Below, in pieces: positions 1 through 4,171 of a stretch of 4,171 nt of DNA (positions are counted from its first letter, which is position 1; the number at the start of each line of letters is the position of its first letter). The translations under genes and the position numbers were made by a program. The notes beneath the pieces are model-generated. The model searched no databases and was not told the origin of the DNA. It saw nothing but the letters and a program-made list of their open reading frames with translations. The stretch comes from a virus (lineage: Duplodnaviria; Heunggongvirae; Uroviricota; Caudoviricetes): the IMG/VR virus record IMGVR_UViG_3300029476_000079, one strand, 5' to 3'.

Positions 1-153
1 AAATACAAAATCTATAACCATGCATTAATTCATTCACAAGACCTGATCATGCTGCGGTCTGGTGAATTTTCTAAATCGCCTATTCGAGTTTCATTTTGCC
101 CGTTCTGTGGTGAAAGTCTGAAAACGTGGGAAGCGGAGGCAACCAGTGAATAA
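1..153 (+). CDS. Hypothetical protein, 5'-truncated by window start (C-terminal 50 aa visible; ends ...VSFCPFCGESLKTWEAEATSE)
   Basis: Frame 1 is open from base 1 to TAA at 151-153. Internal ATG at 49 has no Shine-Dalgarno, so the gene most likely starts upstream of the window. Its stop overlaps the GTG start of the next gene (GTGAATAA, 146-153), the same coupled arrangement as the rest of the operon. C-terminal CPxCG motif. Confidence 0.45.
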   Translation, partial: KYKIYNHALIHSQDLIMLRSGEFSKSPIRVSFCPFCGESLKTWEAEATSE

Positions 154-790
154 CCGCTTTTACCTGATGTGCTTGCGTGAAACTGTGGGTAATAACGCCT
201 CATTCCATTGCCATAACGGCAATGGTTACAGTTCTGATATCGATCGCGCTCATGTTTACACGCTGGAAGAAGCCCAAAAAGCCTGGAATTGTGGGCGAGA
301 TATCGATCAGCCTGTTTGCGCGGATAGCGTGGATGCAATGGCAGTGTGGCACGTTGATTGCCAGTACATCCCTACAGAAAGCCTGATTGAGTCAGATTGC
401 ACTGCGTATGTGGCCTACAAAAAAGGTAGCTGGAACGGCAACGATGTTTACTGGCTTCAACACGGTGGATTGCCAACAGATGACTTCAGTAAAGCGACCA
501 TCTTTAGCGTCGCCAACAAAAACGAACCAGGAATAGTTTGGTTGCCATTTTCCATTGCTGATGCAGCAAAGCGCCGGACGTTCAATATCAATAAATTTAA
601 CCGCAGAACAATGGTTCAGGGCGCAGGTTTGGTCATGCCTGACTGGTTGAAAAAGCAGAACAGAAGAAAGAAGTCGCGAAGCGGGAAGGTGCGTTGGAAT
701 TGTCCGCATTGCGGAAAAATCACCTGGCAGTACANNNNNNNNNNNNNNNNNNNNNNNNNNNNNNNNNNNNGTGAAGGATGGCGAGAATGA
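146..790 (+). CDS. Hypothetical prophage protein (~214 aa), basic C-terminal region followed by a CPHCG motif; residues encoded by 735-770 undetermined
   Basis: GTG start at 146 preceded by GGAGG (135-139) with 6-nt spacing. Open frame to TGA 788-790, which overlaps the ATG of the next gene (ATGA at 787-790). The frame passes through the 36-nt N-run, so the exact C-terminus is unverifiable. No family recognised. Confidence 0.6.
   Translation: MNNRFYLMCLRETVGNNASFHCHNGNGYSSDIDRAHVYTLEEAQKAWNCGRDIDQPVCADSVDAMAVWHVDCQYIPTESLIESDCTAYVAYKKGSWNGNDVYWLQHGGLPTDDFSKATIFSVANKNEPGIVWLPFSIADAAKRRTFNINKFNRRTMVQGAGLVMPDWLKKQNRRKKSRSGKVRWNCPHCGKITWQYXXXXXXXXXXXXXEGWRE
735..770. other. Run of 36 undetermined bases (N): assembly gap or masked segment
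   Basis: Literal n characters in the sequence. Length is a multiple of 3 and the flanking ORF stays in frame across it. Confidence 0.95.
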
Positions 791-1355
791 CAATTGACTA
801 TCAGGTACTGCGTGAGGCGGCAGAAAAGGCAACACCAGACGAATGGGTCGCATTTATTTCGACGGATACTGGTACTTATGCGGTGCACACGCCCGGTGAT
901 GAACGATGTGAAGACGTTATCAAATGGACCGGCTTTGATGGACAGAAAAATGCAGAGAACAACGCTCGTTATGTTGCCGCGTTCAACCCAAAGGTTGCTT
1001 TGGCACTACTGGATGAACGGGAAAGAAACCAGCAATACATCAAACGCCGCGACCAGGAGAACGAGGATATTGCGCTTACGGTTGGGAAGCTGCGCGTTGA
1101 GCTTGAAGCNNNNNNNNNNNNNNNNNNNNNNNNNNNNNNNNNNNNNNNNNNNTTATCTCTGATGGGTGCAAGCGTATTGCTGAACTGGAAGCGCGGGAAG
1201 TTCAATTACCGACTCGCTACGACCTTCGATATGGACACCCGATAAATGCAGATGAGCGACAAGTCATGATACCTAAAGAAAATGGCAGTTGGCTTTACCT
1301 GATTGACCTAGAACACGCATTACGCGTCGCTGACATTCGTATCAAAGGAGAGTGA
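787..1355 (+). CDS. Ead/Ea22-like prophage early protein, reading frame interrupted at the N-run 1110-1152
   Basis: ATG 787 with AAGGA (774-778) 8 nt upstream (alternative in-frame ATG at 778). N-terminal part in frame 1 reads MTIDYQVLREAAEKATPDEW...ARYVAAFNPKVALALLDERERNQQYIKRRDQENEDIALTVGKLRVELEA. After the 43-nt N-run, an uninterrupted start-less ORF in frame 0 (1155-1355) reads ISDGCKRIAELEAREVQLPTRYDLRYGHPINADERQVMIPKENGSWLYLIDLEHALRVADIRIKGE and ends at TGA 1353-1355, one base before the next start codon. The NP.VALALLDE and RIAELEAR motifs match my recollection of the Ead/Ea22 family; this is not database-verified. Confidence 0.55.
1110..1152. other. Run of 43 undetermined bases (N) inside the Ead/Ea22-like gene
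   Basis: Literal n characters. Length is not a multiple of 3 and the coding frame differs on the two sides (frame 1 before, frame 0 after). Confidence 0.95.
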
Positions 1356-1356
1356 T

Positions 1357-1620
1357 ATGGCCACTTTAACAAAAAAAGAACGGGCATGGTTGAATGAATT
1401 ACAGGACGTTCTTGATCGCTGTCCATCACCAAAAAAAATTGGTTTTTACACCATTGGCGATAAAACCATTTACCTGTATGACCTACGCCGCATGGATGAA
1501 ATCATGGAGGCTCTTGATAATCGTTCGTCGATGGATTGGTGTGTTGCTGTCCATGATATGAATGCAGGGTTTGATGAAAAGATTTTGTTCCCCTCATCAG
1601 TTGAAAGCACTGCGGGTTAA
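1357..1620 (+). CDS. Hypothetical protein, 87 aa (MATLTKKERAWLNELQDVLDRCPSPKK...)
   Basis: ATG 1357 preceded by AAAGGAGAG (1344-1352). The start lies 1 nt after the upstream stop. Ends at TAA 1618-1620, which is embedded in the SD of the next gene. No family recognised. Confidence 0.7.
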   Translation: MATLTKKERAWLNELQDVLDRCPSPKKIGFYTIGDKTIYLYDLRRMDEIMEALDNRSSMDWCVAVHDMNAGFDEKILFPSSVESTAG

Positions 1621-1630
1621 GGAGTAACAC

Positions 1631-3175
1631 ATGACCACTATAACCAAAGAGCGACTGCTGACAATCAAGCAGTGGCGCGAAACATACGGACCGGGTAGCA
1701 ACGTTGTACTGCCAGCAGAAGAAGCGGAAGAACTGGCACGGATTGCACTGGCATCATTGGAAGCAGATCCAGTTAAACGAGTTAACTCAGATCAGATGCA
1801 CCGAGTCTGCTTAGAAGCTAATCGCTATTTAGATAAATATGACGCGATGGCGAAAGAGGTAAATAAGTTGCTTGGACGCATCGCCCCGCCAGCGCCAGTA
1901 TTTAACGGCGAATACGGTGACGCATATCAGGGCGCTCGTGAAGACCTGTCCATCTGGAAACGGCGAGCGCTTGAAGCTGATGAGCACGTTCGGCGACTGG
2001 AGCAAATCAATGACCACATGGTGAAAGAGGCGCAGGGAGAATCACGCATGGGCGAGCCTGTAATACGTGAGCCAGCACCGGTAGTGCCTGAAGAAGCAAC
2101 TCCGGAAAACGTAGAAATGCTCTCTGGCTATGTTTCAACGTACAAATTAACCGATAGCGAGCGCGATATTGCTGCCGAAATATGGAACGCCTGCCGCGCC
2201 GCCATGCTTCAGTCCGGAAACTTTCGGGAAAACAAGAATTCGTCAACCAATAATTTTCGGGAAATCGCGGAAACGTCAACCAACTATCCGGCAATTCCTA
2301 GTGAGGTGTTGTCCGCAATCCTGAAGGTTGCCAGGATTCGTGCCGATTTCGATGATTTTGACGGTGACAGGCGAGGTATCGGTGATTGTCTGGATGAGGC
2401 CGAGCAAGAGCTTATCGTTACCATTAACAAATATGCCAGTCAGTTGGCAGCAGAACCGATAGCGACTAATGACGTTCGAGAGCAAACAGCCGTTCCGCCA
2501 ATACAGGCTGATGTCGCGCAAGCAATTGAAAATCTCAAGCAGAAGTTAGTGGAATGCAATCGCTATAACTACTGCGCAGATGCAGTGAAGAACGTAGAGG
2601 ATGCCTGCCGTGCTGTTAGCTATAGCCAAGCCGACAATCAGCCAGCATCTGGCAACCAGGCTGCCGAATCCAATCGCGGTAATGAGTGGACTGGCAATCC
2701 TGATATTGATAACGCCATCATCATGCTCGACCGCATAGATACGCTGGAAAATTGCGATGATGACCGTATTGAGGCTGTTAAGGCTGTTTTGCGTAGACTG
2801 GCAGGCAACTATCCGGATATTCCGGATAGTTCGGTGCCAGCACCAGGAAAGGGCGTCACCGGTGAACGTATCCGAATTAAGCCGCATGTTTATCGCGAAC
2901 TGGTTAACCGTCTCCACGATACAGCGATCAAGTGTGCTGGCACCCAGCAATTACGAGAAAGAATTAGCCGTGTTTTGGGCGACGTTATTACACCAGATCA
3001 TCATAAACAAGCCGAGAAAAGTGGCCTGGAAAGGTGTCACCTTGAGGCGGCATTAAACATTAAGCCGGGGCATACGCTTGGCATTATTGATGCACTATTG
3101 GTTCATAAGATGGCCAGGGCTTTATTGCCGCTGGTGGCTGAAAAGCATGAGGCGGACCATGCCAACGAAAGCTGA
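1631..3175 (+). CDS. Large hypothetical protein, 514 aa, rich in Asp/Glu/Ala/Asn, with an internal 11-aa tandem repeat and an acidic DFDDFDGD cluster; function unknown
   Basis: ATG 1631 preceded by AAGGAG (1619-1624) at 6-nt spacing. A 1545-nt uninterrupted ORF, the longest in the window, makes all antisense track ORFs inside it implausible. No catalytic motif confidently recognised. Confidence 0.8.
   Translation: MTTITKERLLTIKQWRETYGPGSNVVLPAEEAEELARIALASLEADPVKRVNSDQMHRVCLEANRYLDKYDAMAKEVNKLLGRIAPPAPVFNGEYGDAYQGAREDLSIWKRRALEADEHVRRLEQINDHMVKEAQGESRMGEPVIREPAPVVPEEATPENVEMLSGYVSTYKLTDSERDIAAEIWNACRAAMLQSGNFRENKNSSTNNFREIAETSTNYPAIPSEVLSAILKVARIRADFDDFDGDRRGIGDCLDEAEQELIVTINKYASQLAAEPIATNDVREQTAVPPIQADVAQAIENLKQKLVECNRYNYCADAVKNVEDACRAVSYSQADNQPASGNQAAESNRGNEWTGNPDIDNAIIMLDRIDTLENCDDDRIEAVKAVLRRLAGNYPDIPDSSVPAPGKGVTGERIRIKPHVYRELVNRLHDTAIKCAGTQQLRERISRVLGDVITPDHHKQAEKSGLERCHLEAALNIKPGHTLGIIDALLVHKMARALLPLVAEKHEADHANES
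2219..2284 (+). repeat. Imperfect in-frame tandem direct repeat, 2 x 33 bp, inside the 514-aa CDS
   Basis: aactttcgggaaaacaagaattcgtcaaccaat (2219-2251) versus aattttcgggaaatcgcggaaacgtcaaccaac (2252-2284), 25/33 identical. Encodes NFRENKNSSTN / NFREIAETSTN. Confidence 0.6.
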
Positions 3176-3443
3176 ATTACAGGTGCGCGTAGATGAGCTT
3201 GAAAAAGAGAACGCGAGCCTCAAAAAAATGCTGTCGCGGGCGGAAAGGGAATTATCAGGCAAATTATTGCCAGAAGAACTGCCACCAGCAGATATACCTG
3301 ATCGAGTGTCCTGGTGGATGAAGTATTTCCGTGCACCGTGGGAGGCGTTTTGGTGCTACGACCATCGCAGATGGTGTGATGAACTTGATAGCAGTTTTCC
3401 CTACTTTGCGGAAGGGAACACCTGCCCTCAATGCAGGGGATAG
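3159..3443 (+). CDS. Hypothetical small protein, 94 aa: N-terminal coiled-coil-like segment plus C-terminal four-Cys zinc-ribbon-like motif (C-x6-C-x15-C-x2-C)
   Basis: ATG 3159 preceded by GAGG (3149-3152) at 6-nt spacing. Overlaps the stop of the 514-aa gene by 17 nt. Ends at TAG 3441-3443. The track's longer start at 3078 has no SD and lies inside the upstream gene. Sequence MPTKAELQVRVDELEKENASLKKMLSRAERELSGK...WCYDHRRWCDELDSSFPYFAEGNTCPQCRG. Confidence 0.6.
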   Translation: MPTKAELQVRVDELEKENASLKKMLSRAERELSGKLLPEELPPADIPDRVSWWMKYFRAPWEAFWCYDHRRWCDELDSSFPYFAEGNTCPQCRG

Positions 3444-3501
3444 CATTTGACGAAATCGATCACCCTATCCTGAACTTCAGAAAGAAGGTCTTTTTCACGC
3501 G

Positions 3502-3529
3502 CCAGGACGTCAGGATATTGACGTTCTGG
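3502..3529. repeat. Imperfect inverted repeat (10-bp arms, 8-nt loop): CCAGGACGTC-aggatatt-GACGTTCTGG
   Basis: Arms are complementary at 9/10 positions; the mismatch would be a G-U pair in RNA. Lies about 60 nt downstream of the last operon gene. No U-run follows on either strand, so it is not a canonical intrinsic terminator. Confidence 0.35.
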
Positions 3530-3810
3530 CCTTATCAGATGCCGGAGCTTCCCATTAAGCAGAATGGCCTCAGAAAACACTTTTACGCTGTGCTTTATCC
3601 CCTCTGTTTCACTTTTCAGCGTCAAAATAAAGCGCAATTGCTTATTAGCCTGATTCGGATTCAATACACGAATTTGCAGTTCGTCTATGCTGTTTCGCAA
3701 TGGGATTGATGCCACCACACTGGTGCAGTCTCTGATTGTCTGAATTGAACGGCTAACATTGAGAACGTTATTGTGCATGTGCCTGATCCACTAACTCCTG
3801 GAGGTTTCTT

Positions 3811-3957
3811 GTGTCAGATCGAAATATAGCAGCTAAAAGCCAGGAAGAGCGAGACAAGGTGAACGTAGACCTTGCCGCCAGCGGCGTTGCTTACAAACCC
3901 CGCTTTCACAAACTATGCCTTTTCAATGTATACTGTGTGAATAAACAGTATCATTAA
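3811..3957 (+). CDS. Candidate small ORF, 48 aa (MSDRNIAAKSQEERDKVNVDLAASGVAYKPRFHKLCLFNVYCVNKQYH)
   Basis: GTG 3811 preceded by GGAGG (3800-3804) at 6-nt spacing. Open to TAA 3955-3957. The 3' third overlaps the promoter and LexA box of the downstream gene. Too short to judge by composition; below the ORF-track length cutoff. Confidence 0.25.
   Translation: MSDRNIAAKSQEERDKVNVDLAASGVAYKPRFHKLCLFNVYCVNKQYH
3905..3934 (+). promoter_or_regulatory. Candidate sigma70 promoter for the UmuD'-like gene: -35 TTCACA (3905-3910), 18-nt spacer, -10 TATACT (3929-3934)
   Basis: Hexamers resemble TTGACA/TATAAT. The -10 overlaps the LexA box, the usual layout for SOS-repressed promoters. Identified by eye only. 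Confidence 0.4.
3931..3950 (+). promoter_or_regulatory. LexA operator (SOS box) TACTGTGTGAATAAACAGTA
   Basis: Exact CTGT-N8-ACAG core with flanking TA...TA, matching the consensus TACTG(TA)5CAGTA. Lies 17 nt upstream of the ATG of the UmuD'-like gene. The E. coli umuDC operator, as I recall it, is TACTGTATATAAAAACAGTA. Confidence 0.8.
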
Positions 3958-3967
3958 GGTAAAACGC

Positions 3968-4171
3968 TATGGGCTTCCCTTCTCCTGCGGCGGATTATGT
4001 TGAAAGCCGTATTTCTCTTGATCAGCAACTAATCAGACATCCTTCAGCGACCTACTTCATGCGGGCGGCAGACAGCCATCACCGTGAGGGAATATTGCAA
4101 GGTGCTTTGCTGGTGGTTGATTCCTCACTTACTCCGGTTGATGGCTCACTGCTTATATGCGCTATGGAGGG
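3968..4171 (+). CDS. umuD: UmuD'-like (HumD-like) peptidase S24 family protein, 3'-truncated by window end; natively lacks the N-terminal arm of UmuD
   Basis: ATG 3968 with AGG (3957-3959) 8 nt upstream. Translation [68 protein letters not shown] aligns to E. coli UmuD residues 25 onward ([68 protein letters not shown]). In-frame stop at 3938-3940 with no start codon between it and 3968, so the protein genuinely begins at the Cys24/Gly25 cleavage-site equivalent. Confidence 0.85.

Follow-up and report, generated by a model that had tools for sequence, protein, structure and literature searches.

In P1-like phage-plasmids, the interval from pmgT to humD is one of eight hypervariable regions (PMC9603915), and the P1 genes pmgT, pmgU, and pmgV have been scored as non-essential by CRISPR interference (CRISPRi) and by deletion, such that lytic growth does not depend on them (PMC10695390). 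Among phages with comparable early genes, the Ea22 protein is mosaic, oligomeric, and pro-lysogenic, shifting the lysis-lysogeny balance, and has no known partner (PMC10834534), and the exo-xis region is reported to influence the development of the phage as well as gene expression in the host (PMC10789677). We compared with these systems a stretch of 4,171 nucleotides (nt) from a Caudoviricetes virus (IMG/VR record IMGVR_UViG_3300029476_000079), hereafter the window, and in particular the 2,087 nt at positions 1357–3443 that hold three consecutive genes (genes 1, 2, and 3). A paper on phage-plasmid recombination contained nothing specific to this locus. A preliminary description, made from the sequence alone, had interpreted the three genes as one translationally coupled cassette in a lambdoid prophage, and as a candidate undescribed system for superinfection exclusion, anti-restriction, or host takeover. 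The genes themselves are real, the cassette reading is wrong, and gene 2 is a new recombinant within known, uncharacterized families. Overall, we consider it probable that the stretch belongs to the known hypervariable early operon of a P1/P7-like phage-plasmid and carries loosely linked mosaic accessory genes.

The three open reading frames (ORFs) of 87, 514, and 94 amino acids (aa) in the preliminary description were borne out by the ORF list and the sequence, and every start is preceded, at a distance of about 6 nt, by a Shine-Dalgarno-like GGAG or GAGG. They can be regarded as real coding genes because the pooled pairwise ratios of nonsynonymous to synonymous substitution rates (dN/dS) against related loci are 0.05, 0.19, and 0.28 for genes 1, 2, and 3, respectively, as expected under purifying selection.

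The window is matched best by E. coli plasmids that measure about 95 kb and carry humD, phd-doc, and lpa; these plasmids are P1-like phage-plasmids. The equivalent in P7 is the 'hea' operon, which lies behind a C1 operator and comprises Upf87.6, the Ead-like Upf88.3, Upf89.5, and Upf90.8; the frame at window positions 146–790 is 98% identical to the Upf87.6 frame. In P1, the equivalent is the pmgT-pmgU-pmgV operon behind the annotated operator OpmgT/Op88. The C1 operator ATTGCTCTAATAAATAT stands directly after pap in P7 and also in the plasmid that encodes P0097, in which a gene 2 variant is followed by gene 3. Judged from these relatives, genes 1–3 would be under C1 control, with the operator beyond the edge of the window. 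Membership in the C1-controlled pap–humD operon is consistent with the presence of humD and with the matching upstream neighbors, the operator itself being seen in the relatives. Because the best matches are P1-like plasmids, the operon has equivalents in P7 and P1, and the pmgT–humD region is hypervariable, the lambdoid setting is wrong for this replicon. The same gene types and modules are also present in the early regions of chromosomal prophages, including lambdoid ones of the exo-xis type. Given the position of the C1 operator ahead of the operon in relatives and the lack of an obvious internal promoter, the proposed role in exclusion or defense expressed in the lysogen is unlikely.

Genes 1–3 are not a conserved unit. 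Among viral loci with enough flanking sequence, gene 3 was present in 2 of 63 gene 1 loci and gene 1 in 5 of 52 gene 3 loci; these counts come mostly from close relatives and are not phylogenetically independent. At least 80% of the 2,087-nt stretch was colinear in none of 226 matching phage records, two of 5,426 complete E. coli genomes, and two of 72,556 plasmids, and pieces of it occur in 2,160 of the same 5,426 genomes. In a few P1-like plasmids (H66–H69; L083 and L089), gene 1 is again followed by a gene 2 variant, shorter in these cases, and then by gene 3, but this is one arrangement among many. The rarity of both co-occurrence and colinearity in this neighborhood comparison argues against the trio as a functional cassette. 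Translational coupling had been proposed from the close spacing of the genes. The spacing is indeed tight, with a gap of 10 nt between genes 1 and 2 and an overlap of 17 nt between genes 2 and 3, but it does not delimit a three-gene unit. The Ead/Ea22-like gene ends 1 nt before gene 1 and overlaps the preceding gene at 778–790, and the next gene 5' overlaps its own neighbor at 146–153. Since these upstream genes also abut or overlap, close packing is a property of the whole plus-strand operon, of which gene 3 is the final gene.

Two junctions are more stable than the trio, namely that between gene 1 and the next gene and that between gene 2 and gene 3. In 63 of 80 gene 1 loci, the ORF that follows lies 11 nt beyond the stop codon and begins with MTT(I/F)T, the start typical of the gene 2 head. 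The ORFs 3' of gene 1 have bodies of 53 to 335 aa that belong to at least four sequence types. The pairing of gene 1 with such a head-type gene is kept in Edwardsiella, Serratia, Raoultella, and Erwinia, where the gene 1 homologs are 57–69% identical. It is lost in a P2-like Pectobacterium prophage, where gene 1 comes after replication gene A and an unrelated gene follows. In two Pectobacterium P2-like prophages (L245 and L246), a gene 1 homolog lies at 4001–4249, directly 3' of replication gene A and between it and the portal gene. The stretch between these two genes is a place of variable cargo in P2-like phages. A scan of the genome collection for gene 1 returned only eight loci, among them E. 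coli-like contigs assigned to Segatella and Collinsella. Three contigs with a 98–99% identical gene 1 (L250, L251, and L257), assigned to metagenome-assembled genomes of Segatella copri and Collinsella, are most likely binning artifacts of E. coli prophage or plasmid DNA.

At the other junction, P1 and P7 have an unrelated pmgV-type gene instead of gene 3 after the C-terminal module of gene 2. P1 (L153, AF234172) keeps at 7901–7927 only the first nine gene 3 codons (ATGCCAACGAAAGCTGAACTACAGGTA), which overlap the end of pmgV and correspond to window positions 3159–3185; PmgV and the gene 2 protein both end in ...ANES*. This remnant points to a conserved gene-boundary joint and to the loss or replacement of gene 3 in P1. 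Homology between gene 3 and PmgV was considered and rejected; because BLASTP found no similarity between them, the two are alternative neighbors. Distant gene 3 homologs are located after a umuD-like gene, in tandem with a paralog, or upstream of a head-type gene. In plasmid p95_MLI121, a 44%-identical paralog directly follows gene 3.

The composition of gene 2 varies greatly among its relatives. In BLASTP comparisons with 269 relatives, breakpoints were placed at about aa 48–51, 90, 148, 185–191, 216, 291–294, 325–328, 402, and 502. As many as 110 architectures were distinguished in this set, most of them colinear with modules missing or replaced and a few reordered. Residues 1–291 match P0033, a DUF551 protein of 375 aa encoded in a chromosomal prophage, with 99% identity. 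Residues 288–514 match P0097 with 98.7% identity; this protein of 329 aa is encoded on a P1-like plasmid, where gene 3 follows it. In addition, residues 391–502 are 95.5% identical to the P1 pmgU frame (tblastn). Judged by these identities, gene 2 is evidently a recent in-frame chimera, whose 5' part matches a DUF551-type gene of a chromosomal prophage and whose 3' part matches a P1-plasmid gene. Modules B and C are the rarest part of gene 2 in P1-like relatives; window positions 1901–2070 were missing from P1-like loci in megablast searches, and the chromosomal P0033-type gene has them. In a representative set of 149 relatives, the Pfam domains fused to gene 2 modules were DUF551 (47), Ead_Ea22 (8), dATP/dGTP pyrophosphohydrolase (3), and DUF3850 (1). 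Seven relatives have an Ead N-terminal domain followed by gene 2 modules, for example P0156 (aa 368–514, 78% identity) and P0162 (aa 185–291, 94%), and PHROG 60 is matched by both gene 2 and the upstream Ead gene. Because of these fusions and the common PHROG, gene 2 can be said to share a combinatorial pool with the variable tails of Ea22-type proteins.

The breakpoints correspond to Pro-rich linkers, namely APPAPV (aa 85–90), PAPVVP (from aa 148), NYPAIP (218–223), AVPPI (287–291), and NYPDIPDSSVPAP (394–406). The NYPxIP linker joins many different modules on its left to many different ones on its right. The PmgU-type module, for example, is entered through ...RRLAG-NYPDIP-DSSVPAPGK, and DUF551 through ...RRLAG-NYPVIP-DGWISCSERM. 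Its DNA core AACTATCCGGnnATTCC is nearly invariant in the sampled loci, six of which have a 9-nt slippage duplication. The copy at the border of modules H and I, the commonest mosaic breakpoint, is palindromic, with a perfect core at 2807–2831 of two 11-nt arms separated by 3 nt (11+3+11; AACTATCCGGA-TAT-TCCGGATAGTT). No palindrome of this kind appeared in 200 shuffles of the window. The exact core was found in 87 viral contigs; its right flank is uniform in 77 of 80, its left flank is of at least five unrelated types, and in many loci homology to the window sets in at exactly nt 2800. These patterns suggest that short conserved linker sequences may be crossover points for in-frame exchange between modules. 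Two fixed junctions may act likewise, namely TAA-GGAGTAACAC-ATGACCAC ahead of gene 2 and GCCAACGAAAGCTGA, in which the stop codon of gene 2 or pmgV overlaps the gene 3 start. The palindrome itself might be a fragile site, or it may be a by-product of coding P-D-I-P-D.

All three genes belong to catalogued families, with matches to PHROG 1714 (gene 1), PHROGs 60, 14306, and 21459 (gene 2), and PHROG 3797 (gene 3). Gene 2 has more than 4,600 relatives, none of them identical and the best with 78% identity at full coverage, and parts of it are matched by about 2,038 clusters at 50% identity. On these grounds, the trio is not an undescribed system. Searches of Pfam, NCBIfam, and PADLOC gave nothing significant for genes 1–3; weak matches to coiled-coil/basic leucine zipper (bZIP), MreC, and DUF1843 models were below cut-off. 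PADLOC-DB 2.0 gave no defense-model match for six proteins of the window at E ≤ 0.1, which speaks against a defense module. Gene 2 has no sequence relative in the Protein Data Bank (PDB). The lack of a known family for the 514-aa protein agrees with the preliminary description, which saw no catalytic motif in it. That description was also right that these genes are uncharacterized accessory cargo in a variable, early-type phage region and that their function cannot be read from homology. Its description of the protein as rich in Asp and Glu (D/E-rich) holds only to a moderate degree (16.5% D+E and an isoelectric point (pI) of 5.1). Most modules are acidic, and the PmgU-type C-terminal module is basic, with a pI of 9.8. 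Two database names, 'dTDP-6-deoxy-L-hexose 3-O-methyltransferase' and 'putative morphogenetic protein', were rejected, as no domain match supports either.

BLASTP revealed no internal protein repeats in gene 2, and only short DNA repeats were present at the linkers. The head (MTTITKE...ELARIALASLEAEPV) is the most uniform part, with residues 1–48 or 1–51 being 88–100% identical in most relatives. Purifying selection is absent only from codons 201–250 (dN/dS about 1.6) and from the last 14 codons, which overlap gene 3. An AlphaFold2 model from a 49-sequence alignment consists of helices only, with disordered linkers between them, at a predicted local distance difference test (pLDDT) value of 43.8. 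Because the confidence of this model is low, gene 2 is described as a non-enzymatic helical scaffold on the basis of its predicted secondary structure and of the searches that found no match. The best-modeled part is module I (pLDDT 61–67), of which aa 412–462 are matched by seven further PHROGs. At 3147–3944 of another locus (L142), a 265-aa protein starts with the PmgU-type motif HLYRDLVNALFDTAIKYQNTQQLRAKLS and continues with an unrelated domain. This arrangement suggests that the PmgU-type motif of about 40 aa is itself portable, and the matches to seven PHROGs point the same way.

For gene 1, a confident compact fold was predicted, which has no solved structural relative. PDB searches with the gene 1 and gene 3 profiles returned nothing or generic coiled coils only. 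Gene 3 matches phrog_3797 (E = 8.2e-60), a family of only 33 clusters. Its protein begins with a coiled coil, which a Pro-rich linker connects to a Trp-rich domain of the form C-x2-H...C-x2-C; frameshifted variants of the gene are common. The coiled coil agrees with the preliminary description, but the four-Cys zinc ribbon proposed there does not stand. The second Cys (C72) is replaced by V, L, or F in some relatives, and the conserved candidate metal ligands are C65-x2-H68 ... C88-x2-C91, as judged from the alignment. All PDB and Pfam matches of gene 3 are of coiled-coil type and sub-threshold. In particular, the bZIP match scores 17.9 bits against a cut-off of 27.6 and covers the zipper residues 5–32 of a protein that begins at the zipper. 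The label 'antitoxin PHD' (Phd/YefM) was also rejected, with no match to PF02604 and with the true phd located downstream of humD in relatives.

In the explanation that we favor, the stretch would be the distal part of an early accessory operon that corresponds to P1 pmgT-pmgU-pmgV and P7 'hea' (variable region 8, from pap to humD), and genes 1–3 would be separate mosaic pieces rather than a dedicated three-component system. Gene 2 would encode a mostly helical, non-enzymatic protein organized as beads on a string, with a head, two long helices, acidic helical modules, and a basic PmgU-type C-terminus. The family would diversify by exchange at DNA-conserved linkers (PAPVVP and NYPxIP, the latter with one palindromic copy) and at start/stop junctions, and the same modules serve as C-terminal regions of Ead/Ea22-like proteins. 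In the plasmid prophage, C1 would keep the operon repressed; expression would come early once induction or infection has occurred, and the proteins would be dispensable for plaque formation. As in the case of lambda/Stx Ea22 and the exo-xis region, these proteins may act non-catalytically by binding host or phage partners and thereby tune development or host physiology. The gene 2 product may resemble an Ea22-style scaffold with an exchangeable C-terminal domain, and gene 1 may cooperate with the gene 2 head. Such a specific function as a developmental or host modulator is drawn by analogy and is proposed only tentatively.

Several points weigh against this explanation. The head-type gene is found 3' of gene 1 across genera at a spacing of 10–11 nt, and 58 of 65 loci have gene 3 directly after module I, in most cases with an identical overlap, such that some functional coupling of neighboring genes may exist. 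The loci behind the co-occurrence counts are, as stated, mostly close relatives. The gene 2 model has low confidence, the window stops short of the C1 operator and regulation is deduced from relatives, and the functional part is analogical, as homology assigns genes 1–3 no activity.

One alternative, which is compatible with the favored explanation, is that gene 1 and the gene 2 head form a functional pair, with gene 1 acting as a partner, chaperone, or regulator that binds MTTITKE...ALASLEA and with the body modules of gene 2 as well as gene 3 being interchangeable cargo. We regard this as possible but doubtful. The MTT(I/F)T ORF 11 nt 3' of gene 1 in 63 of 80 loci, the same arrangement in Edwardsiella, Serratia, Raoultella, and Erwinia at 57–69% identity, the very strong purifying selection on gene 1 (dN/dS 0.05), and its confident compact predicted fold are all consistent with a pair. 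However, head-type genes are common without gene 1 (the P0033 and P0097 contexts and most gene 3 loci), gene 1 of the P2-like Pectobacterium prophage follows replication gene A and precedes an unrelated gene, and the common junction TAA-GGAGTAACAC-ATGACCAC could be a mere recombination joint. It would be more speculative, and in our judgment rather unlikely, to view the head-type module trains as combinatorial effectors, in which each helical module has one target in the host or a rival phage, gene 1 is the dedicated partner of the head, and reshuffling occurs in frame at dedicated DNA-conserved linkers (the NYPxIP core AACTATCCGGnnATTCC, of which one copy is perfectly palindromic, PAPVVP, and the start/stop junctions). 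A related hypothesis treats gene 2 proteins as polyvalent counter-defense or host-takeover proteins, each module neutralizing a different host factor and shuffling creating new repertoires. The extreme combinatorial diversity described above, in clusters as well as in architectures, would fit this hypothesis, as would the early-operon position, the modules that exist as stand-alone small proteins (P0181, P0196, and P0251), and the fusions to a dATP/dGTP pyrophosphohydrolase domain in three relatives. Nevertheless, no module matches a known anti-defense protein or family among those searched, the modules are mostly short helices modeled with low confidence, and neutral recombination in a dispensable region could explain the diversity equally, so that we consider this hypothesis improbable.

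The 514-aa chimera might instead be a recent recombination product without a selected function of its own, possibly decaying. Its exact combination is very rare, neighboring plasmids have frameshifted versions (the closest, p95_MLI121, is annotated with partial or pseudogene pieces), pmgU of P1 is read in another frame than pmgT, whose annotated 3' end it overlaps, and frameshifted variants of gene 3 are common. Against this stand an ORF that is intact for 514 codons and the purifying selection on each module relative to its homologs, and we find the possibility unlikely. It is very unlikely that genes 1–3 constitute one three-component system for defense or superinfection exclusion, anti-restriction, or toxin-antitoxin activity. 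The genes are indeed close or overlapping in a variable accessory region, and gene 1, a gene 2 variant, and gene 3 are found together in a few P1-like plasmids (H46, H47, H66–H69; L083 and L089), but such co-occurrence is rare and each neighbor is swappable. Moreover, PADLOC found no match, the 'antitoxin PHD' label of gene 3 lacks a PF02604 match, the C1 operator ahead of such an operon would keep it silent in the lysogen, and no promoter-like site above chance precedes gene 1. Finally, a role in virion morphogenesis, as implied by the 'pmg' names of P1 pmgT/U/V and by the 'putative morphogenetic protein' labels on RCS47 homologs, is hardly credible, as the three P1 genes are non-essential by CRISPRi and deletion (PMC10695390), the region is replaced wholesale among P1-like elements, and the modules are shared with the early regions of other prophages, lambdoid ones included.

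The coordinates of the features are collected in Table 1.

Table 1. Positions of genes, gene 2 modules, and sequence elements in the 4,171-nt window.
Feature	Position	Strand	Remarks
Ead/Ea22-like gene	778–1355	+	Pfam PF13935, E = 6.9e-32, residues 5–112
Gene 1	1357–1620	+	87 aa; acidic alpha/beta protein; PHROG 1714; constant length across Enterobacterales
Gene 2	1631–3175	+	514 aa; chimeric module train; P7 Upf89.5 / P1 PmgT-PmgU / EaA / DUF551-protein family
Module A, conserved head MTTITKE...ELARIALASLEA	1631–1783	+	aa 1–51; separate high-scoring segment; phrog_3323 and phrog_660 matches
Modules B-C, two long coiled-coil-like predicted helices	1784–2071	+	aa 52–147; AlphaFold2 helices 53–84 and 94–134
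Tandem 33-nt repeat, low-complexity linker NFRENKNSSTN / NFREIAETSTN	2219–2283	+	Repeat family D1, 78% identity; within codons 201–250
Palindromic linker-coding sequence, AG-NYPDIPDSS, module H/I border	2798–2840	.	Inverted repeat I2; commonest mosaic breakpoint
Module I, basic helical, PmgU equivalent, motif HVYRELVNRLHDTAIK..TQQLRERIS	2837–3136	+	aa 403–502; phrog_21459, E = 4e-101
Gene 3	3159–3443	+	94 aa; ATG at 3159; PHROG 3797
Convergent 116-aa gene	3428–3778	-	From ORF list; phrog_2594, E = 1.6e-46; at the place of P1 lxr
LexA-box-like CTGT-N8-ACAG	3933–3948	.	From sequence; TACTGT-N8-ACAGTA at 3931–3950; between minus-strand gene and humD
humD	from 3969		Preceded by LexA-box-like site

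The Ead/Ea22-like gene was correctly placed directly upstream of gene 1 in the preliminary description, as confirmed by its Pfam match. The window has N-masked runs at 735–770 and 1110–1152, the latter within this gene. The frame that is open over 1155–1355 ends 1 nt 5' of gene 1 and is 100% identical to the C-terminus of single Ead-type ORFs of about 190 aa (L067, L003, L004, and others), which in these relatives also end 1 nt 5' of gene 1. The second mask comprises 43 N and corresponds to 44 nt in relatives at the same place; the ORF looks broken in the window because of this 1-nt difference. In all likelihood, the gene is a single ORF into which the 43-N mask falls. Either the mask is not length-preserving or this copy has a 1-nt frameshift. 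Further upstream, the ORFs at 146–790 and 49–153 both end in CxxC-containing motifs (CPHCGKITWQY and CPFCGESLK). The former, of 214 aa, is the homolog of P7 Upf87.6 (PHROG 2457), which is annotated in P7 as a putative tyrosine phosphatase; Pfam and NCBIfam gave no support for this label.

Downstream of the trio, the 116-aa minus-strand gene overlaps the gene 3 end by 16 nt and is outside the plus-strand operon. It is divergent from humD across the LexA-box-like site and may be under SOS regulation. P1 and P7 have an annotated LexA site at the position equivalent to 3933–3948, and promoter-like sites are located near this element at 3905–3934 (+) and 3941–3912 (-). Scans of the window for promoters and terminators did not exceed chance level and showed no promoter-like site directly 5' of gene 1, and an Rfam scan gave a sub-threshold chance match to a microRNA only. 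In two chromosomal loci (L154 and L155; 6530–11128, minus strand), a 2,783-aa polyvalent-type protein with LPD5, LPD1, MuF_C, and LPD38 domains is encoded just downstream of a relative of the gene 2 5' half.

Genes 1–3 belong to abundant, catalogued families of hypothetical prophage proteins, and their region had already been described as hypervariable. As a new three-gene system the locus is of little importance, and its value is descriptive. One module pool unites P1 PmgU, P7 Upf89.5, the 'EaA'/DUF551 proteins, and the variable tails of Ead/Ea22 proteins, and about 40% of complete E. coli genomes contain parts of it. Candidate linker-coding sequences for in-frame exchange between chromosomal prophages and P1-like plasmids were identified. 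Database names that may mislead were flagged, namely 'dTDP-6-deoxy-L-hexose 3-O-methyltransferase', 'antitoxin PHD', and 'putative morphogenetic protein'. Should a defined target emerge for a module or for the protein of gene 1, the result would extend to thousands of prophages.

Several described protein groups resemble gene 2 in organization. The polyvalent proteins encoded by phages and by conjugative elements (Iyer, Burroughs and Aravind 2017) are reportedly very large and contain recognizable enzymatic and anti-restriction domains. Like gene 2, they join many modules in one polypeptide, are located in accessory regions of mobile elements, and vary in their combinations, whereas the modules of gene 2 are helical segments of 25–110 aa without a recognizable domain. 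A closer likeness is that to Ea22 of lambda and Stx phages, which shares with gene 2 an early position, dispensability (presumed for gene 2), mosaicism, long helical or coiled-coil parts, and interchangeable C-terminal regions. Gene 2 modules also occur as the C-terminal parts of Ead_Ea22-domain proteins, and DUF551 is an alternative C-terminus in both sets. However, genes 1, 2, and 3 lack PF13935, which is restricted to the upstream gene starting at 778. Gene 2 matches no PDB chain by sequence, including the solved C-terminal domain of lambda Ea22, and a pro-lysogenic effect has been reported for Ea22 only. The DUF551/'EaA' prophage proteins of E. coli and Salmonella (P0033 and P0089) have the same head, N-terminal parts of 291–402 residues that are 95–99% identical, and the NYPxIP joint; in contrast to them, gene 2 ends in the PmgU-type module and has no PF04448 match.

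The closest described counterparts are P7 Upf89.5 and P1 PmgT-PmgU-PmgV, in the C1-controlled interval from pap to hot/lxr/humD, which have the same genomic position and upstream neighbors as the window. In P1, the pmgU frame overlaps the annotated 3' end of pmgT in another frame. Compared with both elements, the window has gene 3 after gene 2 rather than a pmgV-type gene, and the P1 and P7 stretches examined are without gene 1. Gene 2 also contains extra modules (aa 52–147 and others) from the chromosomal prophage lineage. It nonetheless has the head and aa 148–502 in common with Upf89.5, and the near identity of its aa 391–502 to P1 PmgU indicates that it carries the PmgU-type C-terminal module.

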